Source: Muricomes sp.
GTDB lineage: Bacteria; Bacillota; Clostridia; Lachnospirales; Lachnospiraceae
Length of the DNA: 64,000 nt
Assembly (NCBI GenBank): GCA_049840515.1
Contig: JASGKW010000019.1
Location: 49,589 to 113,588, forward strand
Direction: 5' to 3'
Part shown: piece by piece, positions 24,706-49,581 of the stretch
How the letters are laid out: the number at the start of each line of letters is the position of its first letter
How positions within the stretch are numbered: position 1 is the stretch's first letter
Translations under genes and position numbers: made by a program
The notes under the pieces: generated by a model
Database searches by the model: none
The model's input: only the letters and a program-made list of their open reading frames with translations
What the model was told of the DNA's origin: nothing

Positions 24706-26592
24706 TCAAGAATAATATGATTCCTGCCTATTTTGCTTTGATAGCTGCCTGTGCTGCATTGCTACTGGGGAGTATTTTTCTCCTTTTATAGCATTCGCAA
24801 TATCTGCAATAAAAAGTATATTGCTATGTACCGAGGGCTTATCGCCCTCGTCAGTATTAGCTTGTTTTTGAATATATATAGTTGGATTATTCTTTCTGCC
24901 TTCCACTACCATATCAATTTCTTCAGTTTCCAAAGCACTTAGATTTACAAACCAAGCAAAATGATTATTCTCCTTTGGAACAACTCTTGCTATAAATTTA
25001 TCTATAAGGTCATTATATATTTGGGGAGCAGAAATATCAATAACTTCTTTCAATGTTGTATTAATTTTGTCCCAAGCTAATCCTTTCTCCTGCCTTGTAT
25101 TATTGGCAGTGCTCTGTTTTAGCAACTCTTCTTCATACTTACACATTTCTTCATCAAGATGCTTTCGTAGATTACGATATTCTTCGGTGGTGATATCTCC
25201 TTCTGTTCGCAAATCAATCAAATTACTGATTTTCATTTTTATTTTAGAGATTTTTCTTTGAATAAGTTCTGACTCTGCCTTTTTATCCCTACTCTCCTGA
25301 TAACATTCTTTCAGAATTGCACAAGCTTTCTGTATTGCCTCATTTTTGTTTAACCAAATCTGTTCCATCAGTTTTTTACACATAACCTCTAGTTTCCAGT
25401 CTGCCACCATCCGTACATCACAATAACCAGTATCATCTAACCCCTGTTCTCTTCTTTTTTTTGCAGAACCATTATTCAATTGATTATAACATTGATACCC
25501 ATATGACCAGTCCTTATTTTTGTTTTTATGCCAGCGGTTTTTCCTAAACGATGCCCCACAAGAACAATGGAGCTTTTTATTCCATTTATCTTTGGTTTCT
25601 TTTCTTGGTGACGTAATGCTTTCTTCTCCAAAAGGTGTTTTCTTCTTCATAGGAAGACTCAATTCTCTTCTTCGCCTTTTTCTGATTTTTTCGCACTTAT
25701 ACCAATCTTCTTCCGAAACAAGTGGTTCAAAACCAGCTTTTACATACATATAAGTATCTCTATTATGGTTATTTATTCTTTTTTGCTCAAGATAATTATT
25801 ACTAAATGACTTTCCATAAACCGCATATCCCATATAAGTTGGATTACCTAGCACTCTGCTAACATTAGAAGATGTCCATTTTACCTGACCTGATGCAGCT
25901 ACTCTTCTTCTATTACAAAGTTCATTTGCTATTTTAATTGTTCCAATTCCTTCATTTAGATACATGTCAAATATCATTCGAACTGTCTCTGCCTGTTCTT
26001 CATTTACTATATATTTTCCATCTACCCGATTATAGCCTAAAATATTACCATTTCCATAAACAACACCTTTAGTACGGCTAATGTGCTGGCCTGCCTTCAC
26101 TCGTTCTGATACTTTTCGACTCTCCTCCTGTGCTAGTGTTGCCATGATTGTCAGACGAAGCTCTCCATCATTATCCATTGTCCAAATGTTATCTTCAACA
26201 AAATACACTTCGATGCCAATACTTTTCAATTTTCTGGTTGTAACAAGTGTATCTACCGTATTTCTGGCAAATCTGCATACTTCACGAGTGACAATCAAGT
26301 CAAATTTTCCTGCTCCGGCATCTTCTAGCATCTTCAAAAATGCCGGACGTTTCTCCGCCTGTGTTCCAGTAATGCCCTCATCAATATACTTATTACACAC
26401 AACCCAGTTTGGATGGAATCTTGCCTGATCATCATACCATTGTATCTGATTCTCCAATGCTGATAATTGCGCCTCATGTTCAGTTGACACTCTACCATAA
26501 AACACAATATTTCTCTCTCTGTTTTTATCTTTAAATGTGTCAAATGGTAACTGAATATTCTTGCTAAAATCCACACTATTTTTATTCATCAC
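24706..26592 (-). CDS. Large serine recombinase (TnpX/TndX-like integrase)
   Basis: 628-aa ORF with the N-terminal resolvase catalytic domain (VFYGRVSTEHEAQ..., TREVCRFARN), a recombinase domain, a Cys-rich zinc-ribbon region (CSCG...CYNQ) and a C-terminal coiled coil. Confidence 0.9.
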   Translation of the reverse strand: MMNKNSVDFSKNIQLPFDTFKDKNRERNIVFYGRVSTEHEAQLSALENQIQWYDDQARFHPNWVVCNKYIDEGITGTQAEKRPAFLKMLEDAGAGKFDLIVTREVCRFARNTVDTLVTTRKLKSIGIEVYFVEDNIWTMDNDGELRLTIMATLAQEESRKVSERVKAGQHISRTKGVVYGNGNILGYNRVDGKYIVNEEQAETVRMIFDMYLNEGIGTIKIANELCNRRRVAASGQVKWTSSNVSRVLGNPTYMGYAVYGKSFSNNYLEQKRINNHNRDTYMYVKAGFEPLVSEEDWYKCEKIRKRRRRELSLPMKKKTPFGEESITSPRKETKDKWNKKLHCSCGASFRKNRWHKNKNKDWSYGYQCYNQLNNGSAKKRREQGLDDTGYCDVRMVADWKLEVMCKKLMEQIWLNKNEAIQKACAILKECYQESRDKKAESELIQRKISKIKMKISNLIDLRTEGDITTEEYRNLRKHLDEEMCKYEEELLKQSTANNTRQEKGLAWDKINTTLKEVIDISAPQIYNDLIDKFIARVVPKENNHFAWFVNLSALETEEIDMVVEGRKNNPTIYIQKQANTDEGDKPSVHSNILFIADIANAIKGEKYSPVAMQHRQLSKQNRQESYYS

Positions 26593-26821: not shown

Positions 26822-27337
26822 TTAGTCATCTATTCTTCCAATATAATAATCATACCCTTTTCGCACATTACAAAACATACAGGTATCTTTATATTGCTGT
26901 TCTGAATCTACCCTCTTAATATAGTTATTAGGTATCTCATAAAAATGTCTTGCACACACCGGACATAAGCATAATAATAAAGACGGTTCTTTAACTATTC
27001 CTGTGCTTGTACGCAATGCTACATTTATTTTTTTCATATGCACACTATCCAGCGTTCCAACATATTTTTTTAATCTCTTTTTATCAATTGTTCTTAATTG
27101 CTCAAGCAATACAACAGAGTTTTTTTCTAACCCCACAATGTCTCCTAACTTAACATGAGTAGGAAGTTTAGTCTTGGTCTTGCTTGTAATTGCTGCAACA
27201 ATAACCGTGGGACTGTACTGATTTCCCCTATTGTTTTGAATTATTAACACAGGACGATATCCCCCCTGTTCGCTCCCATAAACGGGACTTAAATCGGCAT
27301 GATAAATATCCCCTCGCCAAATTCTTTTATCTTGCAC
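26822..27337 (-). CDS. mazF: MazF/PemK (EndoA-like) endoribonuclease toxin fused to a C-terminal 4-Cys zinc-ribbon-like extension
   Basis: Residues 1 to about 115 are close to Bacillus EndoA ([63 protein letters not shown]). An extra tail of about 55 aa carries CPVC...CMFC. The start is GTG with the SD GGAGG 9 nt upstream. Confidence 0.8.
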
Positions 27338-27926: not shown

Positions 27927-28409
27927 CTACACTTCAAAATTTTTTAATTCTTTTTCCAATTGTTTAATAGCAGCATCAATAGAACGCTTGACTGGTACTT
28001 TCGTACATCCTTCTCTTTGAGCAATCTGCTCATATGTCATGTCTTCAAAGTAATACAGAATCAGTCTACGCCGCTGTATATCCGTTAATTTTCCAATCGC
28101 CATATGTAAACTTTCAATCAGAAACTTTTTTAATACACTTTCTTCCATATTGTGTGGTTTATGAAAAGCTCTTGTATTCAATGTAGAATCCCATATCTCT
28201 GACTGTTCAATATGTCTATCCCACACATTAAAATATGACAAATCTTCTAACTCAAATGAATTAAAAGCCTCATATAGCATTTTGTTGATTTCAAATCTAT
28301 TATATATACCTTGTCCATCTTTGAATGATATATAATAATGTCCATTCTGTTCACATATATCGTAAGGATTATACTTATCCTTTCTTCTTTTTGGATGTTT
28401 TCCCTCCAT
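27927..28409 (-). CDS. Sigma-70 region-4-type HTH protein (mobile-element sigma-factor-like regulator)
   Basis: The C-terminal part reads LTDIQRRRLILYYFEDMTYEQIAQREGCTKVPVKRSIDAAIKQL, a region 4.2 HTH. The SD GGAGGAA lies 7 nt before the ATG at 28409; the ORF is open to a TTG at 28424. Confidence 0.7.
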   Translation of the reverse strand: MEGKHPKRRKDKYNPYDICEQNGHYYISFKDGQGIYNRFEINKMLYEAFNSFELEDLSYFNVWDRHIEQSEIWDSTLNTRAFHKPHNMEESVLKKFLIESLHMAIGKLTDIQRRRLILYYFEDMTYEQIAQREGCTKVPVKRSIDAAIKQLEKELKNFEV

Positions 28410-28420
28410 ATTAAATTCCT

Positions 28421-28453
28421 CCAATTTAAATTTTTAAGAAAAATTTAAATTGG
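28421..28453. repeat. Perfect 15-bp inverted repeat with 3-nt spacer, abutting the sigma-like gene SD
   Basis: The sequence is CCAATTTAAATTTTT-aag-AAAAATTTAAATTGG. On the minus strand, the arm proximal to the gene ends in the TTGG of the TTGGAGG Shine-Dalgarno. Confidence 0.5.
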
Positions 28454-28514
28454 AGGGGAGAACGACACCCACCCCCCTTATATAATCTGCTGGTTTTTCC
28501 TATTTTGGGGCAAA

Positions 28515-28548
28515 TAAAAAAACCAGATAGTTTGTAAAACCATCTGGC
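28515..28548 (-). terminator. Intrinsic terminator (second) downstream of the kinase gene
   Basis: On the minus strand: stem CCAGAT / ATCTGG followed by UUUUUUUUAUUU. Confidence 0.55.
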
Positions 28549-28669
28549 ATTAAAGTTTAAATTATGAACTTCTATTTGATTGCACACTTTTATCTTAGTT
28601 AATTTTTATACTGCATTTAAGTTAATTGTTCTTATTAAGTAATATCCGCCAATAAATCATATATCTCAT

Positions 28670-28707
28670 AAAAAATCTTCCATTTCTATATTAAAAAGAA
28701 ATGGAAG
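28670..28707 (-). terminator. Intrinsic terminator downstream of the kinase gene
   Basis: 11-bp stem CTTCCATTTCT / AGAAATGGAAG with a 9-nt loop, followed by a U-run on the minus strand. Confidence 0.6.
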
Positions 28708-28776
28708 ACAAAGTTAAGTAAACTTATTTCAACTATAACTATTTTCTCAATTAGCAATACTGTTTATCTATAAAAT

Positions 28777-30084
28777 CTACAAATTGCTTGCTGACAAAAT
28801 AATCTTAGTCTCAAAATAATCTTGAGAATAATCATAATCCATATTTCCACAATACTTATTGGCAAGGTTTGATAAAATTTCCATTCCTATTCCTAAATGA
28901 CCCGGTTTTGTAGATTCCAAATTTCCATTCCTGCAATGTGGCACTACTCCAATTGTATTTCTCATCCCAATAACAACATATTGATTGAAACGGTGAATCC
29001 GAAGACGGATTTCTTTCTTCTCTTTATTGCAATCCCTACAAGATTCAATAGCATTATCAAATAAATTAGAAAAAAGTGATGTCACTTCGCTTTTTCCCAT
29101 AAAGTCAAACTTTATATCCTGAAAATTAAGTTCCAGGCTAATATCTTCTTGTTTACATATTTGGATTTTCTCCCAAATAATAGTGCATACAATCTCATCC
29201 TCACATTTGAATTGTTGTTGAATATCATTGATAGATTCCATTAACTCACCAATATAAGTTTTTTTAATTTCCTTTTGACTCACATCCAAATTCTCAATTA
29301 CCTGTATATGCTTTTTAAAATCATGTATCAGTTTTTGCATTTCATCATATTGAGTCTGTAAACTTTCATAATACTTTACGGTCATTTTACTCTGCTGTTC
29401 TGTTAATTCCGTTTGCTTTTCAAGTATGGCATTTTGAGAGATCATTTTAAACAAATATATTACTCCTCCGTCAACAATCACAAACCCAATTGCTAAAATG
29501 AGCAATGTAATATTACTATGTGAACTTCTATGATCTTCTATAAAATAGCAAAGAAGTCCTAATTCAAAAATTAATAAAAAAATAGTGTAAAAGTGAATAT
29601 ACCTTGATACTTTGCCAATCTGACTTCGCATAATTAATTGTATTAGTAAACTACACGTACACAACATAGCTAACGCATTACAAATCCCGGAAATCATAAA
29701 AAACTGTGAATTTTCTAGCACCACGTATAAACTTGCACGCATAAAAATCGAAAAAATTGTAGTTACAATTAGATCTACCAATGCAAAATAAATAATAACA
29801 ATTGCCGAATTAATCACCACATTTTTTCTTTTGGTTTTATATAAAATGCATGATATCAAACACAAACTCAGCATAGAATATATTACATTTACCCCTGGCC
29901 AATTAAACATAGCAATTATGGTACTTAAAATAACATATACCAAAAATCCCCCCCAATAACATAATTTATTGTTTAAATATTTCTTTTCATATAAAGAGCC
30001 CATAATTGCAAATAGAACATAACCCGAAACAATTGAAGAAATAATCAGGCTACTTAAATAAAGCATTTTTATCACACCTTTCAA
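28777..30084 (-). CDS. agrC: AgrC-type (HPK10) sensor histidine kinase, GHKL ATPase domain
   Basis: 435-aa ORF. The N-terminal half has about 6 predicted TM helices and the C-terminus has a GHKL domain (NLFDNAIES..., GHLGIGMEI). It overlaps the LytTR regulator stop by 4 nt. Confidence 0.8.
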   Translation of the reverse strand: MKGVIKMLYLSSLIISSIVSGYVLFAIMGSLYEKKYLNNKLCYWGGFLVYVILSTIIAMFNWPGVNVIYSMLSLCLISCILYKTKRKNVVINSAIVIIYFALVDLIVTTIFSIFMRASLYVVLENSQFFMISGICNALAMLCTCSLLIQLIMRSQIGKVSRYIHFYTIFLLIFELGLLCYFIEDHRSSHSNITLLILAIGFVIVDGGVIYLFKMISQNAILEKQTELTEQQSKMTVKYYESLQTQYDEMQKLIHDFKKHIQVIENLDVSQKEIKKTYIGELMESINDIQQQFKCEDEIVCTIIWEKIQICKQEDISLELNFQDIKFDFMGKSEVTSLFSNLFDNAIESCRDCNKEKKEIRLRIHRFNQYVVIGMRNTIGVVPHCRNGNLESTKPGHLGIGMEILSNLANKYCGNMDYDYSQDYFETKIILSASNL

Positions 30085-30800
30085 ATTTTATTAAATGTAG
30101 ACTGCAAAAAGTTATTAAATTCAACTCTAAATCCAGCCGCTCTCTTTTGTGCTAAAGGAATAATTGAACCATTTTCCATAAATATATCAAACCCTTTTAT
30201 AAGCTTTATATAAAGCATATTGACAATGAACCCCTTATGAGGTGAGTTAAAATCATATTTTTGAAATTTTTCGAGCAGTTCCTTCAAACTATATGATGAA
30301 ATATATTTTTCTCTGCTACAATTAATAATTACTCTTCTAGATGAATATTCAAAATAGTAAATATCATCTAAATCTAAGGTGACAGTACCTTCTTCTGTTT
30401 CAAACGCATATTTTTGTTTCTTTCTAGCATTATCCGAATATTGCACTGCTTCCAGCAAAGCACAGCAAATCTCATTTTCACAAACGGGTTTGCTAATATA
30501 ATCAAAGGCATGAACCTTATAGGAACTTTTTATGTAATGCTCATAATTTGTTACATATATTATTTTGCTATTCACATCCCATTTTCTTAACATCCTTGCC
30601 GTTTCAATACCATTTAAATTAGGCATTTCAATATCTAGGAAAATAATATCAAAACGAATATGTGATTCTAATAAATTAACTCCACTTATAAATTTAACAA
30701 CCAACACTGGCCTTCGTATATTATCAAACCATCCTTTAATGATAGCAAATAATTTCTCTCGTACAGATTCATCATCGTCGCATACTGCAACCTTAATCAC
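30081..30800 (-). CDS. agrA: LytTR-family response regulator (AgrA-like)
   Basis: Receiver domain (KVAVCDDD...IIFLDIEMP) plus a C-terminal LytTR DNA-binding domain; 239 aa. Confidence 0.88.
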   Translation of the reverse strand: MIKVAVCDDDESVREKLFAIIKGWFDNIRRPVLVVKFISGVNLLESHIRFDIIFLDIEMPNLNGIETARMLRKWDVNSKIIYVTNYEHYIKSSYKVHAFDYISKPVCENEICCALLEAVQYSDNARKKQKYAFETEEGTVTLDLDDIYYFEYSSRRVIINCSREKYISSYSLKELLEKFQKYDFNSPHKGFIVNMLYIKLIKGFDIFMENGSIIPLAQKRAAGFRVEFNNFLQSTFNKI

Positions 30801-30846
30801 TATATCACCCCATTCAATATCCTATAACCTTTCAATTATTATATAC

Positions 30847-30875
30847 TAAAAAAAGAATCTTTCCATCAGATTCTT
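30847..30875 (-). terminator. Intrinsic terminator after agrB
   Basis: On the minus strand: 8-bp stem AAGAATCT / AGATTCTT followed by UUUUUUU. Confidence 0.6.
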
Positions 30876-30886
30876 TTCCTCATTCT

Positions 30887-31450
30887 TTATTGATTCCCTT
30901 TTTGTCTCTCAATTTCACTCATTAATAACATCACTGTCTGAATAATCCAAGCACATGAAATTCCTTTCAAAATTACGTTCAAAAAGAATCCCGCCAAAGA
31001 AATACACCCAAAACCAATTAAATATTTATGAGTTTTTTTACGATAATCCACCATTTCGTTTTCTTCCAGGGGATTATTATCTGCCTCCTGCGGTGATAAA
31101 CTCCATATAGTATAGCCACAAATTAACATCATTGTATAAAGTATATATGTATCCAACCTTTGAAATATATTTAGCAAGATGAGTAAACAAATTGAGACAA
31201 TAATGGTACAACAGTAACACCCTGTCACTGACTTTGCGTGGTAGCCGCCAGAATACTCTCGCATACTGGCATATGCTACCAAAAAGATAAAAACACCCCA
31301 AAACTCGCCACCAATGAACCCAATAACCAAAAATAATAATATATGGATAATCTTTTTTATAAATATATTAAGGCCATACCGATATATCTCAGTTTTTTCT
31401 TCGTCAATCACTTCGCTTCTGATAAGAAAAGATAAAATCTTTTTTTCCAT
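30887..31450 (-). CDS. agrB: AgrB-family autoinducer-peptide processing membrane protease
   Basis: 187-aa polytopic membrane ORF with the AgrB signature region MREYSGGYHAKS..C. Confidence 0.85.
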   Translation of the reverse strand: MEKKILSFLIRSEVIDEEKTEIYRYGLNIFIKKIIHILLFLVIGFIGGEFWGVFIFLVAYASMREYSGGYHAKSVTGCYCCTIIVSICLLILLNIFQRLDTYILYTMMLICGYTIWSLSPQEADNNPLEENEMVDYRKKTHKYLIGFGCISLAGFFLNVILKGISCAWIIQTVMLLMSEIERQKGNQ

Positions 31451-31454
31451 GTCA

Positions 31455-31610
31455 CTACTTGTTGCTTTTCTTCATACTTTTTACGCTGTCTGGCATTTTA
31501 GGTTGTCCATGCAAAAAAATACATGCTGAATTAGCATTTTTTTCAGCCATCTTATAAGATGTTACCGCAATAACTTCTGCTAAAGCCTTTTTAATTTTCT
31601 TGTCCATCAT
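31455..31610 (-). CDS. agrD: AgrD-like autoinducing-peptide precursor (51 aa, unannotated)
   Basis: This ORF falls below the track cut-off: MMDKKIKKALAEVIAVTSYKMAEKNANSACIFLHGQPKMPDSVKSMKKSNK. It has an amphipathic N-terminus, a single Cys, then a QPxxP charged tail as in AgrD. The SD GGAGGA lies 6 nt upstream, and the stop is 4 nt before the agrB ATG. Confidence 0.65.
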   Translation of the reverse strand: MMDKKIKKALAEVIAVTSYKMAEKNANSACIFLHGQPKMPDSVKSMKKSNK

Positions 31611-31663
31611 AATTATTCCTCCATAATCAATATTTTTTATAAATCTAGTTAAAGTATATTTCC

Positions 31664-31921
31664 TTATTTTTCAAATTTCAACAAGCCTGTGTAAAATACG
31701 ATTTTTTTGTTCAAACTACGACTTTTTAATGCAATTTTTATCAAATTCCCCGAATACTCCTGAGATATAAGAATATCTATATCCTCTAATGCTAATTTCT
31801 TAAATTCATCTAAGACACATTGAGGCAATATCGATTCTACTACAATCCAAGGGACACAACATTGCCTATACACATGAATTCTAATATATAAACGGATATC
31901 CTTCTTATTTAAAACCTTCAA
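31664..31921 (-). CDS. Hypothetical protein (85 aa) upstream of agrD
   Basis: ORF on the same strand, 53 nt upstream of agrD and divergent from the XRE gene. I did not recognise a family. Confidence 0.35.
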   Translation of the reverse strand: MKVLNKKDIRLYIRIHVYRQCCVPWIVVESILPQCVLDEFKKLALEDIDILISQEYSGNLIKIALKSRSLNKKIVFYTGLLKFEK

Positions 31922-31977
31922 AGTTTATTTCTATTTAAAATTTCATGCCCTATAATTTAGCAAGATGGAGGTACTGT

Positions 31978-32223
31978 ATGTGCAGATTCGATAAGACAAT
32001 TATGGGAGAAAGAATTAGAGTACAACGTGAATCACTGAATATCAGTCGGGAGCAGTTTGCAGAAATGCTTGGTGTTACCACAAAATTCTGTGGTGATATT
32101 GAATCCGGTGCACGCGGTACATCGCCTCAAACGCTGACCAAAATTTTTGATTGTCTAATGCTCTCTACTGATTACATTCTATTTGGAGAATCATCAAAAA
32201 CAAGTGATCAAATTTTCCTTTGA
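31978..32223 (+). CDS. XRE-family HTH transcriptional regulator (in-frame TGA at 32221; frame continues to 32304)
   Basis: HTH region MGERIRVQRESLNISREQFAEMLGVTTKFCGDIESGARGTSPQTL. The SD GGAGG lies 6 nt before the ATG at 31978. After the TGA, the same frame reads AINLCPETKKTHLLTVIEKIIESYNA*. Confidence 0.8.
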   Translation: MCRFDKTIMGERIRVQRESLNISREQFAEMLGVTTKFCGDIESGARGTSPQTLTKIFDCLMLSTDYILFGESSKTSDQIFL

Positions 32224-32366
32224 GCAATTAACTTATGCCCCGAAACAAAGAAAACACATTTGCTTACTGTTATAGAGAAAATTATTGAAAGCTACAATGC
32301 ATAAAATATTCAATAAAACTATATTTATCCATTATTATTTTATGATATGTTATTCTCCCTAAAAGT

Positions 32367-32394
32367 TTATCCGCCGGAATATTTCGGCGGATAA
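32367..32394. terminator. Bidirectional terminator between the XRE gene and the permease gene
   Basis: Perfect 10-bp stem TTATCCGCCG / CGGCGGATAA with an 8-nt loop. Confidence 0.6.
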
Positions 32395-32465
32395 ATTAAT
32401 TATGTAAAAACAAAATATGTTTATTATCTGAGACTTTTCCTAAATAATGTCCTATTTTAAATTTA

Positions 32466-35094
32466 TCACCCGTCATTTCTCAATTGCTCTATTGCACTTT
32501 TTCGAGATGTTTTCCTATAGACAACCTGTGGTAGCAAAACACAAAAAAGCAACAGAATGACAGCCACAATAATCAGCTCTTTTACAGGATAAACAAACCG
32601 AAAATAGGAAAGATTTCTCTTAATCATGAAGCCTACTCCCCAAATCAACAATGAACCTATGCTCAGTAAAGCTGCAAGCAAAATCCCCCAATAATATAAT
32701 CCTTCCATTATCATCATTTTTTTCAATTGCTTTTTTGTCATTCCAACACTCTCCATGATTACAAATTCCTTTTTTCTGGAAACCATATTAGTAATAATTA
32801 CATTCAAATAGTTAATAATCCCCAACAAAAGCAGACTTAGGCAAAGTGCAAACATTACGGTCCTTGTGTTATTCACATAATCTTCCATCCTTGCCCTTTC
32901 ATCTGAAGTGCTGAAAAGAGAATAAATATTAACTGCTTTTTGTTCGCTGTTCTTTTTTTTGATCAGTTCTGTCAGTTTTGCCTTTGCTAATGCCTCTTGT
33001 CCCTTTTTTGCATTTATTGAAAAACCAAATATCTGCTTTGGAAAATGAAGCCTCTCAAACCCTTTCTCACCAATAAGGAAATAATTAATGCCTTCTCCAT
33101 TCCAACTCATATCTAATGGAGGAAACCCTTTTATGGTTGTATCAAGATAACCGGAACAAACAAACTCCACTCCTTTATCTTCCGGATTCCCCTCTCCATC
33201 CATGGAATAAACTTGAGCAGGCATTCCATTTATTCCTTTTGCATTTAACTCTGACATTTCAGATAATTGATGTTTGTGCAGCACCAGTATACCAGTTCCA
33301 TTGCTTAAACTGTCTATATCAATGTCCAATTGATTCTTTCTTATATAATTTTCTAGTTTTTGAATATACTTGTCACTTACCACTTGTATTGTCATTGACG
33401 TATTACTTGTTCCACTTGCATACCCTGCTTCTTCAAGTGGCTGTACATATTCATCTGAGAAATCATATGAACCATAACATCCCCATATTTCTTTTACGCT
33501 ATTTTTGTCCAGTTCCTCCATATTTTCTATTTCTTTCATAAGACTTTCATCAAACAATGGTTTCTCTCTATCTACATGGAGCTGCTCCACCTTACTATAT
33601 GGAAATATATAAGCATTTACTGCGTCTTTCTGCGTACCTATTTCAAAATCTGATTTCTGAGAAAGTTGGTTCATTGTATCAGTGCCTGTTGAAATAAATG
33701 CAGCCAAGAGTGCCATCTCACATCCCACGAATAAAGCTATCAATGTAATCAAAAGCTTAGGCTTAGAACGAAATAAATTGTATCGGGCCATCCTCCCTAT
33801 TGACGCTCCCTTTCTTGATTTTGTTTTTCTATGGGGAAATACAGGAGACTGCACTATATCTATATGCTTCAATCGGGCTTAATTGTTTCAATTTTCTCAT
33901 GGTGTGTCCATTAGCCAATAACATCAGAACAATCACAATCAAAATTGCCCCCATCAAAATCTGAGGATACAGTATTGTCTGGATACTTATCTTTCCATTT
34001 TGCTGGAGAAACAAGCTACGAAATAATATGGGGAATCCTATTCCGCCAATCAAAAGACTGGCAATCCCCCCAATAATAGAACCCTTCACAATAATCTCTT
34101 TATTTTGTCTAAACAACAGTTTTTTGACCTGTTTTTGAGTAACACCAATTGTGAAAAGCAGACCATAATATTGAATATCTTTGGTAAAGGAAATAGAAAG
34201 CACATTATATATCAAAAGGTAAACACTCAGCAAAACAATAATGGTACATAAAACTGCAATCCCATATCCACCTATAAACTGATTCACAGCCTGAAAGCTG
34301 ATGGAATAACCTCCGACAAATTGTTGATTTTCATCTGTCAATGGTACATCTTGATACAACTGTCGTTCCATCTGGATATCACTTAAAAATTTCGATTTAA
34401 ATGTTATGAGTAACTTTTCAGGATATTTTGCTATTTCTTTCTCTTCCAAGTATTTTTCAGATAAATATACAGTTGGTATATTTTCTGATTCTTTTATGTA
34501 GTCATTATAATATCCGGATAACACAAATTCCTCTGTCAGTCCATTGCCATCGTTAACAGACCAACTTTTAAACTGGATGGGAACAGATAGTTTCATTCCA
34601 ATTTGAGGCTCCTGAATACCCAAACTTTCAAATAGTTTTTTCGGCAGCATTATTTCCTTTTTATCTGCCGGATAATGTCCTACGATTCCATCATAAGCAG
34701 GTTTTACAATTTTTTCATATCCAATTTTATCAAGAACCTTACATGTTGCAAAAGGTGTATCATTCTGAATCCAATCCCCTACGCTACACTCCTGTCCCAC
34801 ATATTCAATATAATCCAAATTCATTATTTTTTCATATTGTTCTTCTTTTGCATTGACTAAATAGGCAGATGCCGCACTGCCATTTTCCCGCAGGTTTTTT
34901 ATAGAATCAATAACAACCTTACCTTTTGCTACACTAAATACAGAGAAGAGCACAAATATCGCCAGAACTACTGCAAAAATCAAAATCTTATTACGATTGC
35001 GGTTTGCTTTTCTACTTGCACTTACGAGCTCCTGTATATCATCATTTTTTTTAGAATTTTTCATAAGTTGCCTCATATTATACGATTCTTCCAT
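32466..35094 (-). pseudogene. ABC transporter permease with two FtsX domains (about 880 aa), split by a 1-nt frameshift
   Basis: ORFs 33829-35094 and 32466-33872 overlap. Each has an extracytoplasmic domain plus an FtsX-type 4-TM bundle. The junction reads ...KLKQLSPIEAYRYS / SPVFPHRKTKSRKGASIGRMARYNLFRSKPK. Confidence 0.8.
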
Positions 35095-35740
35095 CTTCTA
35101 TCTGAATCACCCGATCTGACATGTCTGCAATTTTTTCATCATGTGTAATAATAGCCATTGTTTGATGATATTTCTTTGCCATTGCTTTCATAAGATGAAT
35201 TACTTTTTCACTGGTTTTGGAATCCAAGTTCCCCGTAGGTTCATCTGCCAATATAATAGCAGGCCGTGTTACCAGGGCTCTCGCAATTGCTGCCCTTTGT
35301 TGTTGCCCTCCAGACAATTCAGCAGGCATCTGATAAAGTTTTTCTTCTATGCTTAATTCCACTGCAAGTTGTTCAATAAATTCTTCATCAATAACTTCGC
35401 CATCCAGCTTAACTGGTAATGCAATATTCTCATATACATTCAATATTGGCACAAGATTATAGTTTTGAAATACAAATCCAATATTAGACCGTCGGAAAAT
35501 AGTAAGATCTTCACCATTCATAGATGACAAGACTTTCCCTTTCACAGATACCAGACCAGATGACGGATAATCTAAACCGCCCAACATGTTTAACAATGTT
35601 GATTTTCCACTTCCAGATGCTCCTGAAATAGCTATAAACTCGCCTTCATCAATAGATAAGTTGACATTATCTATTGCCTTGACTTCAATGTTACCGGTAG
35701 TATACACTTTGTTTAAGGAAACCGCTTTCATAATTTCCAT
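35078..35740 (-). CDS. ABC transporter ATP-binding protein (MacB/LolD-like)
   Basis: Walker A GASGSGKST, signature LSGGQQQR and Walker B ILADEPT. It overlaps the permease start. Confidence 0.9.
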   Translation of the reverse strand: MEIMKAVSLNKVYTTGNIEVKAIDNVNLSIDEGEFIAISGASGSGKSTLLNMLGGLDYPSSGLVSVKGKVLSSMNGEDLTIFRRSNIGFVFQNYNLVPILNVYENIALPVKLDGEVIDEEFIEQLAVELSIEEKLYQMPAELSGGQQQRAAIARALVTRPAIILADEPTGNLDSKTSEKVIHLMKAMAKKYHQTMAIITHDEKIADMSDRVIQIEDGRIV

Positions 35741-35782
35741 AAATCCTCCTTTTGAATCTGCACTGTAAAAACTATTTCAACA

Positions 35783-36448
35783 TCAGTTTATATATTTATC
35801 AAGAGGAGCTTTATCTACTCCTAAAAAATTTAAAATTTGAATGTCACCAAAATAATAAGACTCTATTTGCCCATTTTTAATATGAAACAAAGTGGGAACC
35901 GCTGCTATTACCAGATTTTCATCTGACACATTTGTATAATCTATAATTGGTGATTCTCTGACAGCATATATTTTTCCTTCTTCTTTTCCAGCATTTAGTT
36001 CCACAAATTCTTTATCTGCTTTTTTTATACTATAATCAAGAGGGGAATATCTTTCTTTCAAATTTGCCTCCGTAAGCCCATCCTGTAAAATCATTTTTCC
36101 TTTAACAACTTTACCTATCTCTTTGTCATATGCTTTATGGTGTTCATCCCAGTTATAATCCTTTATTCCTTCATTTCCTTCTGCTCTTGTATCTAACACA
36201 TATAGTTGATTGTTTCTTGCAAATTCGATAATTTCATCTCTTACATTATCACAATATGGACACCCTGCTCTTTGCGCATATACATAATAATCATCTTGCT
36301 CTTCCAAAAATTTGTTCACACTTGTTGTTTGCAAATCTTTATAGGGATTATCCGGAGCCCCTTTCACCCCTTGATAAAGCAAATATACGCCTCCACCTAT
36401 AATCATTACTAGAAATAAAATTCCTAACATATACATTTTTCTTCTCAT
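35783..36448 (-). CDS. Membrane-anchored thioredoxin-like protein (CPYC), bacteriocin-accessory-type
   Basis: N-terminal TM helix, CPYC at residues 63-66 and the cis-Pro motif VPT at 184-186. It lies between the C39 exporter and the ABC ATPase. Confidence 0.6.
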   Translation of the reverse strand: MRRKMYMLGILFLVMIIGGGVYLLYQGVKGAPDNPYKDLQTTSVNKFLEEQDDYYVYAQRAGCPYCDNVRDEIIEFARNNQLYVLDTRAEGNEGIKDYNWDEHHKAYDKEIGKVVKGKMILQDGLTEANLKERYSPLDYSIKKADKEFVELNAGKEEGKIYAVRESPIIDYTNVSDENLVIAAVPTLFHIKNGQIESYYFGDIQILNFLGVDKAPLDKYIN

Positions 36449-36495
36449 ATGTATGTACCTTTTATGGATTTCTCCATTTCCCTTCTTTTAGTATA

Positions 36496-38682
36496 TTATT
36501 GCCCTAGCAGCCTACAATAAATTCCTCCATTATCAATGAGTTCTTGATGGTGTCCATATTCTCTAATAACACCCTTTTCCAATACATAAATCATATCACA
36601 AGATTTTGCAATATTAGTTCTATGAGTAACAATAATGATTGTTGTGTTTGGTAAATACTGTTTTATTGCATTATTTATATTTTTTTCTAAATCAAAATTT
36701 AAATTACTAGTTGCCTCATCTAAAATTAAAATATGGGGGATTTTCAATATTGCACGCGCAATCATTAAACGCTGTTTTTGACCAGTTGATAGGTTACTTC
36801 CTCCCTCTTCCAATATAGTGTTATATTGTAAGGGTAACTCCATAATAAACTCGTGAATGTAGACTAACTTACAAACTTCAAACACGTCCTTTTCATTAAT
36901 ATTTGTATTTCCTAATAACAAATTATCCATTATAGAAATACTAAATAGAAATGTTTCTTGTGACACATAAACGATTCGTTCTCTTAACCATTCTGTATCA
37001 ATTTTGTCTATATTTTTTTCTCCAATAGTAATATAGCCATTTTCAAGTTTATATAATTTCATTAATAATTTCGTGATTGTAGATTTTCCGGAACCACTTT
37101 CTCCAATTATTGCGACATTAGATTTGGCCTTAATGTTTAAGCAAAAATTGTGAAGAACATTCTTCTCTGGATTATAGCCAAACGAAACCCCATCAAAGCA
37201 AATATCTTTTTGCAATATATCCAAATCTATTTCTTCTTCGCCCTCTGTAAATGTACATTCCTCTAAATCCAAATCCATAATTTCTTGTATTCTCTCTGTT
37301 GCCACAAGAGCTGTTTGTAACTGAGCTTGCATACCTATTAGATTTCTAATAGGATCGAAGAAGTATATAATTAATGCATTAAAGGTTATTAATTCGCCTA
37401 ACGTGAGCCTATTTAAGAAAATAAATATTACACCCATACCGAGAATGATTATTTCTCCAGTAAATCCAATCCAACTCTTTAATCCATATTGGAGGTTTTC
37501 TAAGCTTCCTAATTTATACATACTTTCTAAATAAGAATTAAATTTCTTTTTAACCATTTCAAAAGCATATGATTTTGCATTATATACTTTAACAGTCATT
37601 ATTCCATTAAGAAAATCTAAGATTCCAGACATTGTCTGTGCCTCATTTACAAGTTGATTTTTGCTGTATGTATCATATTTTTTTCTAAAAAGTATGGCAA
37701 CAATTATATAAAGAAAACACATAACCATCAACCCTAAAAACATTTCCTTATTTTGATAGTACAATATAAACCCTGCTACTATTACTGCAATAATATCAAT
37801 AAAAACTGTAAGGACTATCTTTGATAATAAATCTTGTATAACTGCAGCATCTTGGAATCTTGCAACTAATTCACCTACCCTGCGGTTATCAAAGAATTTT
37901 TGTTGCATTTTCAACAAATGACTATAAAAATCCATAGAAATCTTATTATTTATATGTTTTCCTAGTACCAATGATATATTTATTCGTAAAACATTTAAAA
38001 TTACTTTAGCTATAGTTAAAAGAAGAAAAGCCTCAACAACCAGAACCAAACTCTGAAATGCATATTCAGGCAAGATTTTATCTATTAGTATTTTATAATA
38101 AAATGCTGAGCCTATATTAATCACAGTATATAACAATGAAGTTGCAATAATAAAACAACATATTTTTTTATCTGAACTAAGTACCTCTAAAAGAAATAGG
38201 AATTTAGACGGCTTTTGATATTTTTCCCCAAACTCTTCTGTTGGTGACAATACTACCAAAACTCCAGTCCATTTATATTGTTTTTTACTCACTTTACAAG
38301 TTTCCAATTTCCTAAAAGAATCCCTAGACAATTTGATGATACCCTGAGCAGGGTCTGAAATAATAATTTTATCTTTTTCTATTTTTAAAATAACCACATA
38401 ATGTAATAAATCATTATCTACAATTACATGTGAAATACAGGGTAATGGAATGTTATCCATGTTATCCGTCTCATCCTGTATACATCTCATTGCATCAACT
38501 TTAAATCCAATAGATTGTGCACCTGAAATAAGGCCCTTAAGGCTAGTTCCCGTTGTATTAGTTCCCATTTCTTCTCTTAGCCTAGCTATTGACACATTTC
38601 CTTTATAAAACTTTGTAATAATAGCTAAGCATGTCGGACCACAATCAGACATATCATGTTGCTTTATATTAACAAATCTCAT
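36496..38682 (-). CDS. Peptidase C39 domain-containing ABC exporter (bacteriocin/competence-peptide type, ComA/LagD-like)
   Basis: N-terminal C39 motif QHDMSDCGPTCLAII, six TM helices, Walker A GESGSGKST, signature LSTGQKQR and Walker B LILDEATS. The ATG at 38682 follows GGAAGGGA. Confidence 0.9.
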   Translation of the reverse strand: MRFVNIKQHDMSDCGPTCLAIITKFYKGNVSIARLREEMGTNTTGTSLKGLISGAQSIGFKVDAMRCIQDETDNMDNIPLPCISHVIVDNDLLHYVVILKIEKDKIIISDPAQGIIKLSRDSFRKLETCKVSKKQYKWTGVLVVLSPTEEFGEKYQKPSKFLFLLEVLSSDKKICCFIIATSLLYTVINIGSAFYYKILIDKILPEYAFQSLVLVVEAFLLLTIAKVILNVLRINISLVLGKHINNKISMDFYSHLLKMQQKFFDNRRVGELVARFQDAAVIQDLLSKIVLTVFIDIIAVIVAGFILYYQNKEMFLGLMVMCFLYIIVAILFRKKYDTYSKNQLVNEAQTMSGILDFLNGIMTVKVYNAKSYAFEMVKKKFNSYLESMYKLGSLENLQYGLKSWIGFTGEIIILGMGVIFIFLNRLTLGELITFNALIIYFFDPIRNLIGMQAQLQTALVATERIQEIMDLDLEECTFTEGEEEIDLDILQKDICFDGVSFGYNPEKNVLHNFCLNIKAKSNVAIIGESGSGKSTITKLLMKLYKLENGYITIGEKNIDKIDTEWLRERIVYVSQETFLFSISIMDNLLLGNTNINEKDVFEVCKLVYIHEFIMELPLQYNTILEEGGSNLSTGQKQRLMIARAILKIPHILILDEATSNLNFDLEKNINNAIKQYLPNTTIIIVTHRTNIAKSCDMIYVLEKGVIREYGHHQELIDNGGIYCRLLGQ

Positions 38683-38732
38683 TTTTTTCCCTTCCAACTG
38701 AATATTTATTTCGATTTTATGTTTTACTAAGA

Positions 38733-38786
38733 AAATAACTCCTTATGAATTTATGGATATGACCATACCTTCAAAAGGAGTTATTT
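38733..38786 (-). promoter_or_regulatory. 12-bp-stem hairpin between the peptide gene and the exporter (possible attenuator or processing site)
   Basis: On the minus strand: AAATAACTCCTT, a 30-nt loop, AAGGAGTTATTT, then UCUU. Confidence 0.35.
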
Positions 38787-38828
38787 ATACCCTTATGGAA
38801 CTATCCAATGAATTTTTTTGCAATAACC

Positions 38829-39008
38829 TTAGAAATATTGAGAGCAGTTGTGCTCATAGCAATATTTGATATATGCTTTCTGCTGCTCGTATGTTAATGC
38901 GTTAAATGTTCTCTGAAATTCAGCTCGTGATCTTGGGCAAGAAAAACCTCCACCAGTAATTCCTTCCATTTCTTCTGATGTTAAAACACAAAATCCTTTA
39001 ATAGCCAT
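38829..39008 (-). CDS. Double-glycine-leader peptide precursor (59 aa, unannotated)
   Basis: The sequence is MAIKGFCVLTSEEMEGITGG / GFSCPRSRAEFQRTFNALTYEQQKAYIKYCYEHNCSQYF. The leader fits LSxxELxxIxGG. The SD GGAGG lies 7 nt upstream, a promoter lies 55 nt upstream, and the C39 exporter follows directly. Confidence 0.7.
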   Translation of the reverse strand: MAIKGFCVLTSEEMEGITGGGFSCPRSRAEFQRTFNALTYEQQKAYIKYCYEHNCSQYF

Positions 39009-39061
39009 ACTGTTACCTCCTTTTTTGATTTTTTTATTTAACTTAGTTCTAAGTTGGTGTA

Positions 39062-39090
39062 ATTATAAAATTCAATTCTTGTTTCGTCAA
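39062..39090 (-). promoter_or_regulatory. Sigma-A-type promoter of the GG-leader peptide gene
   Basis: On the minus strand: TTGACG (39085-39090), a 17-nt spacer, then TATAAT (39062-39067). Confidence 0.5.
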
Positions 39091-39326
39091 TAATATCGGG
39101 CAAATGACAATTTTCACGTATAAGCTACGATTCTTTTTATCTTATTGATAAACATCATGTAACTTTTAGTTTTAAATTTCAACCCTAAAAGTTTCAGACA
39201 ATTTTTATTAATATATAATAATTTGTACCTCATTTTCAATTCAGTTAATACTACTAATACACTTTAAAGAGTGTGTATACAAAAGAATGGACAGAGACAT
39301 ATCCTCTGCCATCCTTCCGACACTTT

Positions 39327-41147
39327 CTAATATTTCACTAGACCATATCCATAAATATTGCCATATCCAATCGCATAGTTCCGTCTCTGACATCTATCAC
39401 CACTGTTTCCTTCAATGGTATAAACTACACCATCCTCACATTTCTCCACAATTCCCACATGGTCAATACTTCCATCATTCCCCCAATCAAAAAAGATAAT
39501 ATCTCCTCCTGCCGGAACATAGTTTCCATCCTGCCACTGCCCCTTTTGCTGGAACCATGACACACCATTCGAACAAAGAGCAAACTTTGGCATAATACCA
39601 GAATCAATATATCCACATTGCTGGGCACACCAGGACACAAAACATGCGCACCATTCCACACGACTGCCAAATCCATACCAACTCCAGTAGGGTTGTCCTC
39701 CTACGTTACCCTCCTGCGATAGTGCTATCTGCACAATGGCCTGATTGCCAACACTTGTAGGGATTCTACCAAAAACATAGTACCGGAGCACATGAGGAAC
39801 ATAGTGTTTATCCCCATATCCGCTCCAGCCCATGCGCTGAGCCATCATATCTGAAAACTCTGCCGCATTAACCGCTGTATATCCCCCATAGTTATTTTTT
39901 GCCCATGTGATATAACCGTTTCCAAAATTGTATCCCTGCAAAGCCAGCTTAATCTGGTCCATATCCAGCGGATTTTCAACATCAGCACTCTCCAAACAGC
40001 TCTTTAACACCTGCACTCCACATTGAATGGAATATTCCGGTTCTGTGATACCATTTGGCTGGCGTGGAAAGCGGGTATTAAAGGAACTTTCTGCACTCTG
40101 CATGGGGTCACTCCCCCACCCTCCACTCTCCTGCATCATCACCGCCTTAATCAATTCCACATATTCTCCAACACCATATTGTTTTGCATACTGCCGGATT
40201 ACTGGCTCATAGGCATTTACTTCTTCACTGACCGGAGTAACTGTACGGGAATTTCCACCCCCTGTGATACAAAGGATTCCACCAAACAAAACGATAAGAA
40301 TTAGAATCAGGACTGACATCCAACCTCCTGCAGCTATGGCAGTCACCAGTGTTTTGGTTGCAGCTATGATAGCTTTCACTGCCGATGATGTAGTTTTCAC
40401 GGCTGCTTTTACCGCCTGCTCCGCTGCTTTTTCCGCAATTCGTGCTACTTTTATGGCTCTTTGGGCTGTTCTGGTGGATACTCTTGCTGCTACCTGTGCG
40501 GCTTTCGCCGCCTCATGTGTTGTCTTAATCGTCGTATGCGCTGTCCGCTCTGCCGTCTTTACAGATTTCCCGGAACATTTGACCATACCTTTCCCAGCGT
40601 TCTTTACAGTCCGTTCCATTTTTCCAGCCGTTTTTATAGTTTTTTCTCCCCGCTCCAACGTCTTAACTGCCTGTTCGGAAACTTTCCTGACCTCTGATAC
40701 ACGATGTCCTGTAGTTTTTTTCTGTGACAGTGCCTGTCCTCTTTTCCATATCTGATCTTTGGTCTGGTGAGAAGTATTTTCCCTGCCTGCAAAGGAAGGT
40801 GGCAGGGAAGAATCCCCTCCAATATCAACGTGGCTTTCCTGAATGGCCTGTTTCATATTTCTTGTTTCTTTGGCAACCTGATACTTTTCCTTTGCCGCAT
40901 AGACACCCCGTTTTCCTAGCTTACCAAGCTGCCGGACAGCAGTATACCTGGCAGAGTCTATGGTATGCATCACCTTTTCCCCCGCATAGCCTTCAGGGGT
41001 ACTTTGTTCCTGGGTCTGGGGCTGTGTTTTTTCTGCAGTATCTTTTGTCCTTACAAAAGCATGTTTCATGTGGTCTGTAACGGTTATGGTCTTATCCAAT
41101 GCCTTGATGTCCTTATAGATTCTACGTGTCTTAATCTCCCTGACCAT
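39327..41147 (-). CDS. Conjugation-associated peptidoglycan hydrolase (lysozyme-like/transglycosylase + CHAP domains)
   Basis: 606-aa ORF with a TM segment, the lysozyme-like motif AVMMQESGGWGSDPMQSAES and a C-terminal CHAP domain (WCACFVSWCA...DHVGIV). Confidence 0.8.
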   Translation of the reverse strand: MVREIKTRRIYKDIKALDKTITVTDHMKHAFVRTKDTAEKTQPQTQEQSTPEGYAGEKVMHTIDSARYTAVRQLGKLGKRGVYAAKEKYQVAKETRNMKQAIQESHVDIGGDSSLPPSFAGRENTSHQTKDQIWKRGQALSQKKTTGHRVSEVRKVSEQAVKTLERGEKTIKTAGKMERTVKNAGKGMVKCSGKSVKTAERTAHTTIKTTHEAAKAAQVAARVSTRTAQRAIKVARIAEKAAEQAVKAAVKTTSSAVKAIIAATKTLVTAIAAGGWMSVLILILIVLFGGILCITGGGNSRTVTPVSEEVNAYEPVIRQYAKQYGVGEYVELIKAVMMQESGGWGSDPMQSAESSFNTRFPRQPNGITEPEYSIQCGVQVLKSCLESADVENPLDMDQIKLALQGYNFGNGYITWAKNNYGGYTAVNAAEFSDMMAQRMGWSGYGDKHYVPHVLRYYVFGRIPTSVGNQAIVQIALSQEGNVGGQPYWSWYGFGSRVEWCACFVSWCAQQCGYIDSGIMPKFALCSNGVSWFQQKGQWQDGNYVPAGGDIIFFDWGNDGSIDHVGIVEKCEDGVVYTIEGNSGDRCQRRNYAIGYGNIYGYGLVKY

Positions 41148-49391: not shown

Positions 49392-49581
49392 GATATTTAT
49401 GCCCCCTTTTCCCTTTCTCTGCTGGAACCTCCATCCGGGCAATCACCTTTAACAGTACATCATCCACTGCATCCGTGGCTTTACCTTCCTGAATCATCTG
49501 ATTGCGTTTATCATTTAAAGAATGAAAAATCACGCCGCTCTCATATTGGTCCAGTTCCAGAGTAATTTTTGTATCGCCCAA
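49378..49581 (-). CDS. Small hypothetical protein upstream of the coupling protein
   Basis: 67-aa ORF with a TTG start preceded by the SD AGGAGGTG at 6 nt. Confidence 0.45.
   Translation of the reverse strand: MGDTKITLELDQYESGVIFHSLNDKRNQMIQEGKATDAVDDVLLKVIARMEVPAEKGKRGHKYHEER

Follow-up and report, generated by a model that had tools for sequence, protein, structure and literature searches.

A putative agr-controlled cassette for a double-glycine-leader peptide, carried by an integrative and conjugative element of a gut Lachnospiraceae

We analyzed a stretch of 64,000 nucleotides from contig JASGKW010000019.1 (hereafter the window), whose source is a metagenome-assembled genome (MAG) of a Muricomes sp. 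(Lachnospiraceae); hypothetical proteins of this MAG are 100% identical to two products of the window, a peptide precursor and a protein with a CPYC motif. Both are encoded in a cargo block of an integrative and conjugative element (ICE), in which an agr-type quorum-sensing module lies next to a cassette for a peptide with a double-glycine (GG) leader. The entire gene series from the peptide to the histidine kinase is found on the minus strand, with the exception of the gene for an XRE-family regulator, which is convergent and located on the plus strand. The map of open reading frames (ORFs) and our profile searches confirmed the genes that a previous sequence-only reading of this DNA had listed for the region. 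In the order of transcription from the peptide promoter, its features are as follows:

39105-39132, minus strand: LytTR-type direct-repeat pair of the peptide promoter, AATCGTAG-N12-AATTGTCA, with a 20-bp period
39062-39090, minus strand: sigma-70-type promoter of the peptide operon, TTGACG-17-TATAAT, matching at 11 of 12 positions and kept in the related locus L006
39041-39054, no strand assigned: palindrome AACTTAG-NN-CTAAGTT in the 5' untranslated region (5'UTR), downstream of the -10 element, present as a single copy in the window
38829-39008, minus strand: 59-aa precursor (ORF map) with a 20-aa double-glycine leader and the 39-aa core GFSCPRSRAEFQRTFNALTYEQQKAYIKYCYEHNCSQYF
38733-38786, minus strand: stable hairpin between the peptide and exporter genes, a candidate attenuator (folding free energy -31.1 kcal/mol, z -4.36; inverted repeat I3)
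36496-38697, minus strand: C39 peptidase-ABC exporter (Pfam Peptidase_C39, ABC_membrane and ABC_tran)
35783-36448, minus strand: membrane-anchored CPYC protein of 221 aa with a predicted thioredoxin fold (alignment, AlphaFold2 [AF2] model, Foldseek)
35078-35740, minus strand: ABC ATPase of an FtsX-type transporter (Pfam ABC_tran, E=2e-33)
32466-35094, minus strand: duplicated FtsX (MacB-like) permease, frameshifted, with one FtsX domain per half
32367-32394, no strand assigned: GC-rich hairpin TTATCCGCCG-loop-CGGCGGATAA, read from the sequence, a candidate bidirectional terminator between the convergent permease and XRE genes
31945-32223, plus strand: XRE-family helix-turn-helix (HTH) regulator, part of the agr module (Pfam HTH_3)
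31696-31723, minus strand: LytTR-type direct-repeat pair of the agr promoter, AGTCGTAG-N12-AATCGTAT, with a 20-bp period
31664-31921, minus strand: 85-aa ORF whose 3' end overlaps the agr boxes (ORF map, tblastn)
31653-31681, minus strand: agr promoter TTGAAA-17-TATACT (promoter scan)
31455-31610, minus strand: agrD, precursor of the autoinducing peptide (AIP) (TIGR04223, 40.8 bits against a cut-off of 19)
30887-31450, minus strand: agrB (PF04647, E=1.9e-35, 122 bits against a cut-off of 23)
30850-30878, minus strand: intrinsic terminator after agrB (folding)
30838-30865, minus strand: weak promoter following the agrB terminator (promoter scan)
30081-30800, minus strand: response regulator with a LytTR DNA-binding domain (Pfam Response_reg and LytTR)
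28777-30084, minus strand: AgrC-type histidine kinase (HATPase_c_5, PF14501, E=8e-17; GHKL domain)
28522-28548, minus strand: terminator after the kinase gene (scan)

The components by which an agr-type system is recognized are all present: AgrB, AgrD, an HPK10/AgrC-type kinase, a LytTR regulator and paired repeats upstream of a -35 element. AgrD contains the predicted ring Cys30-Ile-Phe-Leu-His34 followed by GQPKMP, and this C-I-F-L-H/GQPKMP motif is kept across the family alignment. Hydropathy analysis of the kinase yielded about seven hydrophobic or transmembrane (TM) segments in residues 1-212, and its H-box reads HDFKKH, with H254, D255, K257 and H259 invariant in the alignment. The response regulator reached 41 bits against the AgrA equivalog model, whose cut-off is 400, and is hence not AgrA itself. 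The terminator noted earlier at the 3' side of agrB is real and folds well.

Among the loci that we fetched for comparison (denoted by L numbers), the XRE gene is kept beside agrD, agrB and the regulator and kinase genes in L009-L019, L022 and L117. The 85-aa ORF of the sequence-only reading indeed exists; it has to be corrected to a truncated copy of a longer protein, as tblastn revealed it to be the C-terminal part of a conserved 112-122-aa protein (~115 aa) from which approximately 55 N-terminal residues are gone. This conserved protein (L014 4999-5367; L015, L016, L017, L117) shows 31-47% identity between species, has no Pfam match, is always positioned between the XRE gene and the agr boxes, and is pseudogenised by stop codons in L009-L012. 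In Petralouisia muris (L014 5362-7373), the gene for a 490-aa insertion sequence (IS) transposase is inserted on the opposite strand between the agr box/promoter region and agrD, so that autoinduction is probably uncoupled in that strain. A related agr module in L117 (11351-20322) lies beside genes for large serine recombinases, three in tandem, and other genes of mobile elements, a neighborhood which suggests that this agr family is repeatedly associated with mobile DNA.

The second gene set comprises five genes encoding the peptide, the C39-ABC exporter, the CPYC protein, the ATPase and the permease. The leader of the peptide, MAIKGFCVLTSEEMEGITGG, has the double-glycine type known from class II bacteriocin systems; it ends in GG and carries hydrophobic residues at I(-4), M(-7), L(-12) and F(-15), a pattern kept in seven variants of the peptide. 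Behind the common GG, these variants share (G/Y)(F/Y)SCP...EF.RT.NAL...YI..CYE.NC; Cys4 and Cys35 are invariant in all seven, while Cys30 is missing from one. The AF2 model of the 39-aa core (pLDDT 94.7) consists of three short helices. Profile searches matched the peptide to no Pfam family, sequence and fold searches against the PDB produced nothing meaningful, and a word-index homology search returned only the source MAG and L006. A glycocin/sublancin-type system was considered and rejected; the locus has no glycosyltransferase gene and the peptide has no nested C-X6-C pairs.

The promoter at 39062-39090 is the best promoter-like site within 28500-39400. The arms of the palindrome downstream of it (39041-39054) are kept in L006 (~1135-1150), where the center differs by 1 nt; this element might bind a repressor or fold into a hairpin at the 5' end of the RNA. 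We tried it as an operator for the XRE regulator: it occurs once in the window, and its center spacing is 1 nt different in L006. The hairpin that the sequence-only reading had placed 3' of the peptide gene is real (-31 kcal/mol, z=-4.4) and probably raises the ratio of peptide to machinery.

The exporter is of the class II type: its C39 domain matches PF03412 (E=1.9e-32) and contains the DCGPTC motif. Its true start is likely the ATG at 38682, and the alignment with orthologues begins at residue 6. The CPYC protein has a single N-terminal TM segment, and the RRK residues in front of it suggest an N-in/C-out orientation with an outward-facing active site. Its family alignment reveals an invariant YVYAQRxGCPYCDNV sequence and, downstream, an invariant cis-Pro-like AVPxL motif. 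The AF2 model (pLDDT 81) had as top Foldseek matches thioredoxins and 1zma, the bacteriocin transport accessory protein of Streptococcus pneumoniae, with probabilities of 0.9-0.98 but E-values of ~0.02-0.04 and TM-scores of 0.55-0.6 normalized on the target; these weak E-values are attributable to an insertion of ~90 residues. When the profile of the CPYC family was compared with PDB sequences, thioredoxins and 1zma were again recovered, with all matches non-significant. The protein scored 15.8 bits (E=0.0097) with the PedC_BrcD model (TIGR01295), below the cut-off of 120, and we therefore do not class it as a member of that equivalog. The family is small (66 clusters at E<=1e-10 among 1.84 billion representatives), and distant relatives of 140-155 aa themselves match the PedC/BrcD and thioredoxin models, which provides a transitive link. 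We predict that the CPYC protein acts like a PedC-type accessory protein from outside that equivalog. The sequence-only reading had assigned every part to a known family; this has to be corrected, as neither the CPYC protein nor the peptide matched a Pfam family.

The permease has the topology of a MacB/FtsX-type transporter (TM1, an extracytoplasmic domain, then three TM segments forming the FtsX part). A single protein of about 880 aa had been described for this position; in the assembled sequence, two ORFs (421 and 468 aa) overlap here instead. Each orthologue is one fused chain of 850-865 aa that follows one frame up to about residue 404-424 and then another. The split corresponds to a +1 frameshift caused by one extra C in the CCCC run at 33833-33836, and deleting one C restores ...SAVSCISHRKTKSRKG, which matches the orthologous linker.

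The two gene sets are connected by their promoters. The sequence-only reading had found no convincing LytTR-type repeats upstream of the peptide promoter; our analysis uncovered such a pair at 39105-39132 and a second one at the agrD promoter (31696-31723). The AgrA protein is known to bind imperfect direct repeats 12-13 bp apart that are positioned upstream of the -35 element (PMC5600425), and the arrangement in the window agrees with this. Both window promoters have an identical layout, in which two 8-mer repeats with a 20-bp period are followed by 14 nt, the -35 element, a 17-nt spacer and the -10 element, and a degenerate scan of the 64-kb window recovered only these two box pairs.

We then searched the window and the loci fetched by that time (~1.7 Mb, both strands) for two TCGT[AC][GT] 6-mers exactly 20 bp apart. 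All 16 matches to this strict motif fell at promoters associated with this regulator family, namely those of agr in L009-L012, L014-L019 and L022, of an operon in L013 and of the peptide gene in L006/L007, together with positions 31721 and 39130 of the window. To avoid circularity, a weight matrix was trained without the window sites, exclusively on the agr promoters of five other species (L009, L014, L015, L016, L017). Applied to the window, it scored 21.9 bits at 31721 and 19.6 bits at 39130, while the next-best window site reached 5.8 bits and the best of 30 shuffles 13.3 bits. This matrix detected one match of 18-23 bits in each locus with a family regulator (L006, L013, L116, L117), including the sites in L116 and L117 that the strict 6-mer motif had missed, and gave no more than 0.5 bits in cassettes that lack agr genes (L001, L003, L005, L093, L119). 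The sequence-only reading had proposed a density-gated peptide system on an ICE with the regulatory link left as conjecture; this link is supported by the shared boxes with their common spacing to the -35 element, by the absence of any other strong matrix match in the 64 kb, and by the retention of the box in the diverged L006/L007.

Two of the loci with such box pairs contain close relatives of the regulator and the kinase in operons devoid of agrBD. In L013 (208-6053), the regulator and kinase are 84% and 73% identical to those of the window, the same box pair is present, and the operon encodes an FtsX permease, an ABC ATPase, a 107-aa membrane protein, the response regulator and the histidine kinase. 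In L116 (1524-11293), where the kinase is 63% identical and a box pair is likewise found, substrate-binding protein/ABC permease genes, a gene for a YknX-like protein and one for an HTH protein precede those for the response regulator and the kinase.

Comparison with the fetched loci showed that the five genes, with a fused permease, stay together as a conserved cassette. A divergent gene pair for BlaI (Penicillinase_R) and BlaR1 (Peptidase_M56) precedes this cassette in 14 loci, which cover four lineages of the peptide; these include L001 (4640-6406), L003 (5688-7440), L093, L097, L098, L100, L102, L103, L106 and L119-L122. The two peptide promoters of this type that we read, those of L001 and L003, contain TACAAT...ATTGTA-type palindromes. 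The cassette of L005 has neither BlaI/BlaR1 nor an agr regulator, and no agr genes were found within 10 kb of the BlaI/BlaR1-type cassettes or of L005. The BlaI/BlaR1 pair points to a different control of the same cassette, possibly one that senses the peptide or the cell envelope. Conversely, the closest agr modules consist of the XRE gene, the small ORF, agrD, agrB and the regulator and kinase genes without the cassette. The kinases of these modules share 46-63% identity with the window kinase, and among the host organisms are Petralouisia, Claveliimonas, Dorea, Gallintestinimicrobium and uncultured Lachnospiraceae.

L006 and L007, which share 60-71% protein identity with the window, offer an insight into the history of the composite locus. 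In both, the cassette is directly followed by a truncated kinase gene, and tblastn located a junction at which residue 347 of the second permease half is joined to residue 88 of the kinase. This deletion scar indicates that the two modules were already combined, in this order and orientation, in an ancestral composite locus. The peptide promoters of L006/L007 and of the window can be aligned over the distal box, the -35 and -10 elements and the 5'UTR, whereas the sequences further upstream cannot be aligned. The scar and the boxed promoter together imply that the coupling is rare but predates the split of the two lineages. Judged from these alignments, it appears to have been accompanied by a swap of the promoter relative to the BlaI/BlaR1 version; since the agr-less cassettes have no boxes and are paired with BlaI/BlaR1, regulatory rewiring rather than mere adjacency is suggested for the locus in the window.

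The cargo block stands out by its composition (29-36% GC, with 39-48% GC in the flanks), in agreement with the AT-richness that had been noted for it. The ICE context was also borne out, since profile searches identified in one block a serine recombinase, a VirB4-like ATPase, a type IV coupling protein (T4CP), a MobA/VirD2 relaxase, a lysozyme-like/CHAP hydrolase and a sortase. This gene set contains what defines an ICE, namely relaxase, coupling protein, VirB4-type ATPase, cell-wall hydrolase and integrase/recombinase. The recombinase gene lies on one side of the cargo and the other five on the opposite side; the right end of the ICE is located beyond the 64-kb window.

24706-26592: serine recombinase gene, adjoining a chromosomal adenine deaminase gene

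When flanking proteins of the ICE (CHAP hydrolase, sortase, DUF6674, VirB4, sigma-like protein, MazF and recombinase) were compared by tblastn with all fetched loci, no match was obtained; no related backbone, with or without the cargo, was thus recovered, and L006/L007 are not within the same element. A search for flanking repeats or insertion scars around the cargo block yielded short AT-rich chance matches only, a whole-locus megablast search against plasmids yielded nothing, and exact-sequence look-ups with the peptide, the CPYC protein and AgrB recovered zero contigs.

Several other features of the element were noted. At the recombinase end of the ICE, a MazF/PemK-like toxin gene (26822-27337, minus strand) is preceded by a pemK RNA motif (RF02913; 27523-27621, minus strand, 59.7 bits), and the C terminus of the toxin is extended by a Cys-rich stretch (CxxC...CxxC). 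At 28418-28456, a perfect inverted repeat of 18 nt, CCTCCAATTTAAATTTTT / AAAAATTTAAATTGGAGG, spans the start of a gene for a sigma-70 region-4 protein (27927-28424) and may be an operator or a translational hairpin. The ICE also encodes a protein of 1969 aa (56360-62269, minus strand) with N6 DNA methylase/Eco57I-like and SNF2-related helicase domains.

We consider it likely, on the basis of these comparisons, that the locus is an agr module fused to a class II-like disulfide peptide cassette which it controls, carried as ICE cargo in a member of the Lachnospiraceae, and that the peptide is probably a bacteriocin. Going by what is known of the family, AgrB would process AgrD to a five-residue thiolactone AIP with the ring C-I-F-L-H; the polytopic AgrC-like kinase would sense this AIP and phosphorylate the LytTR regulator. 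The regulator would in turn bind the TCGTAG-like repeat pairs, whose fixed distance upstream of the -35 elements is observed, and thereby create positive feedback at the agr promoter and activate the output at the peptide promoter. The C39-ABC exporter would cleave the precursor after the GG sequence (Gly20) and secrete the peptide, in whose compact three-helix structure the extracytoplasmic, membrane-anchored CPYC protein is predicted to form a Cys4-Cys35 disulfide. The co-transcribed ABC ATPase and duplicated FtsX permease would serve as a candidate self-protection pump. Agr control would here replace the divergent BlaI/BlaR1 pair under which the cassette normally stands.

A number of observations weigh against this interpretation. 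The peptide promoter has a degenerate proximal box (TTGTCA instead of TCGTAG), and the repeat period is 20 bp, compared with the 21-22 bp found for AgrA of Staphylococcus aureus. Classical LytTR-dependent promoters are weak, and that of the peptide operon is near-consensus, so that it might fire without an activator and be partly constitutive. The peptide has no detectable similarity to a characterized bacteriocin, and the permease gene is frameshifted as assembled. Furthermore, most relatives of each module occur apart. The sequence-only reading would have been refuted by modules that are independent in related elements and have no shared regulation; the first part applies to most relatives, while the second is opposed by the agr-less cassettes, with their BlaI/BlaR1 pairs and without boxes.

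Among the alternatives, the one that survives best concerns the function of the peptide. It might be a disulfide-containing second signal or another kind of effector, e.g., a pheromone for BlaR1-like receptors, with the ABC/FtsX proteins used for export or sensing. The lack of similarity to known bacteriocins and the absence of a small dedicated immunity gene would fit such a role, as would the BlaR1/BlaI sensor-repressor pair that adjoins the cassette in relatives and is compatible with sensing of the peptide. We nevertheless hold a non-antimicrobial function to be unlikely. Pairs of ABC and FtsX proteins are typical of peptide self-protection or detoxification (BceAB/MacB-like systems), and such a pair is strictly conserved downstream in the cassette; the core peptide is cationic (net charge ~+2) and helical; and the GG leader, the C39-ABC exporter and the thioredoxin-like accessory protein together form a layout of the pediocin/bactofencin type (PMC5465099).

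It is also conceivable that the locus is decaying and no longer works, as the frameshift at 33833-33836, the loss of ~55 N-terminal residues from the 85-aa ORF, and the deletion of agr genes from the L006/L007 relative might suggest. Against this stand the remaining genes, which are intact and have conserved catalytic motifs. Moreover, two further genes of the window are frameshifted inside conserved domains: gltB (1666-6214), with a junction near 2969-3096 that cuts the Glu_synthase domain at model position 248/369, and the T4CP gene (47572-49442), interrupted at an A5 run (48324-48366) that cuts T4SS-DNA_transf at 251/468. The assembly therefore looks indel-prone, and the shift in the permease gene may be an assembly error. 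This shift is located in the linker between two complete FtsX halves, so that a two-chain permease could still function. We judge decay to be somewhat less probable than a non-antimicrobial role of the peptide.

Finally, the modules could be merely neighboring ICE cargo without shared regulation, the repeat at the peptide promoter being a chance match or the site of another binding protein, a view to which the separate occurrence of each module in most relatives, the near-consensus peptide promoter and its degenerate proximal box lend some weight, but which we regard as highly improbable in light of a matrix from other species that places both window sites far above the rest of the 64 kb and all shuffles, the identical spacing of both sites to the -35 element, the retention of the box in L006/L007 while the surrounding DNA diverged, the absence of boxes from BlaI/BlaR1-type cassettes, and a composite gene order ancestral to two lineages.

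If agr control of the peptide cassette is accepted, its implications reach beyond this element, even though the locus does not overturn current understanding. Agr-type systems are common in gut Clostridia and their targets are mostly unknown; the locus provides a concrete case, with a defined box motif, one autoregulated promoter, and one output promoter driving the peptide gene together with maturation and protection genes. The alternation between BlaI/BlaR1 and agr would exemplify the swapping of regulatory modules for a single peptide cassette, and the mobile element could pass a competitive trait that depends on cell density from one gut commensal to another. A bolder proposal, which we put forward as a speculation with the odds against it, is that the cassettes represent an uncharacterized family of disulfide-stapled three-helix peptide toxins of gut Lachnospiraceae with modular input (BlaR1/BlaI in most cases, agr here), and that on this ICE weapon, protection and a private density signal are combined into one unit. 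On this view, peptide production would report the density of element-carrying cells and penalize element-free neighbors, a greenbeard or addiction-like benefit for the ICE. The TCGTAG box pair would also be the first marker to define a regulon in a widespread agr family of gut commensals, and the ring C-I/V-F-L/F-H, common across genera in this family, would allow cross-species talk.

Our literature search found no paper describing the cassette. LytTR-type quorum control of bacteriocins, control of a bacteriocin by agr/fsr, and ICE-borne bacteriocins are already established. What we see as new is the apparent wiring of an AgrBD-made signal to an adjacent operon for a GG-leader disulfide peptide in Lachnospiraceae; the box consensus, the BlaI/BlaR1-to-agr swap and the ICE carriage are new as well.

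Among known systems, the pln, spp, cbn and blp/com loci of lactic acid bacteria, which combine an induction peptide, an HPK10 kinase and a LytTR regulator, resemble the locus in the window in their HPK10/AgrC-type kinase and LytTR regulator, in the paired direct repeats just upstream of the -35 elements of regulatory and bacteriocin operons, in the passage of a GG-leader peptide through a C39-ABC transporter, and in their autoinduction logic. They differ in the signal, which in these loci is a linear GG-leader peptide exported by the bacteriocin transporter and here a predicted cyclic thiolactone made by AgrB/AgrD; the 20-bp repeat period, the gut Lachnospiraceae host and the location on ICE cargo further distinguish the window locus.

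The agr system of S. aureus (agrBDCA, P2/P3) and the fsr system of Enterococcus faecalis have the AgrB, AgrD, AgrC-like and LytTR components in common with it, as well as imperfect direct repeats that precede the -35 element (PMC5600425) and the combination of one autoregulated and one output promoter. In E. faecalis, Fsr controls enterocin O16/EntV (PMC5454873), a bacteriocin that requires a disulfide bond (PMC6606811). In contrast to these systems, the gene order here is agrD-agrB-terminator-response regulator-kinase, supplemented by an XRE regulator gene and a small conserved ORF; the box is TCGTAG(TTT) instead of [TA][AC][CA]GTTN[AG][TG]; and the output is the adjacent peptide operon rather than RNAIII or gelE-sprE.

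With the pediocin PA-1 and bactofencin A operons, the cassette has in common a GG-leader peptide, a C39 ABC exporter and a CXXC accessory protein for disulfide formation (PMC5465099), which in the window has a predicted thioredoxin fold with a match to 1zma. The low PedC_BrcD score of the CPYC protein (15.8 bits, with a cut-off of 120) and its ~90-residue insertion set it apart from these operons; the peptide of the window is unrelated in sequence, and the immunity candidate is an ABC protein with a duplicated FtsX permease, not a small immunity protein.

Nisin is encoded on Tn5276-type elements and acts as its own signal, perceived by an OmpR-type two-component system. Suicin gene clusters are found on ICEs of Streptococcus suis (PMC6490898, PMC7168690). 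In these element-borne, autoinduced systems, as in the window, a peptide weapon, its regulation and the protection against it travel together on a conjugative element; nisin and suicin are lantibiotics, whereas here a separate agr signal is predicted to gate an unmodified, disulfide-bonded peptide.

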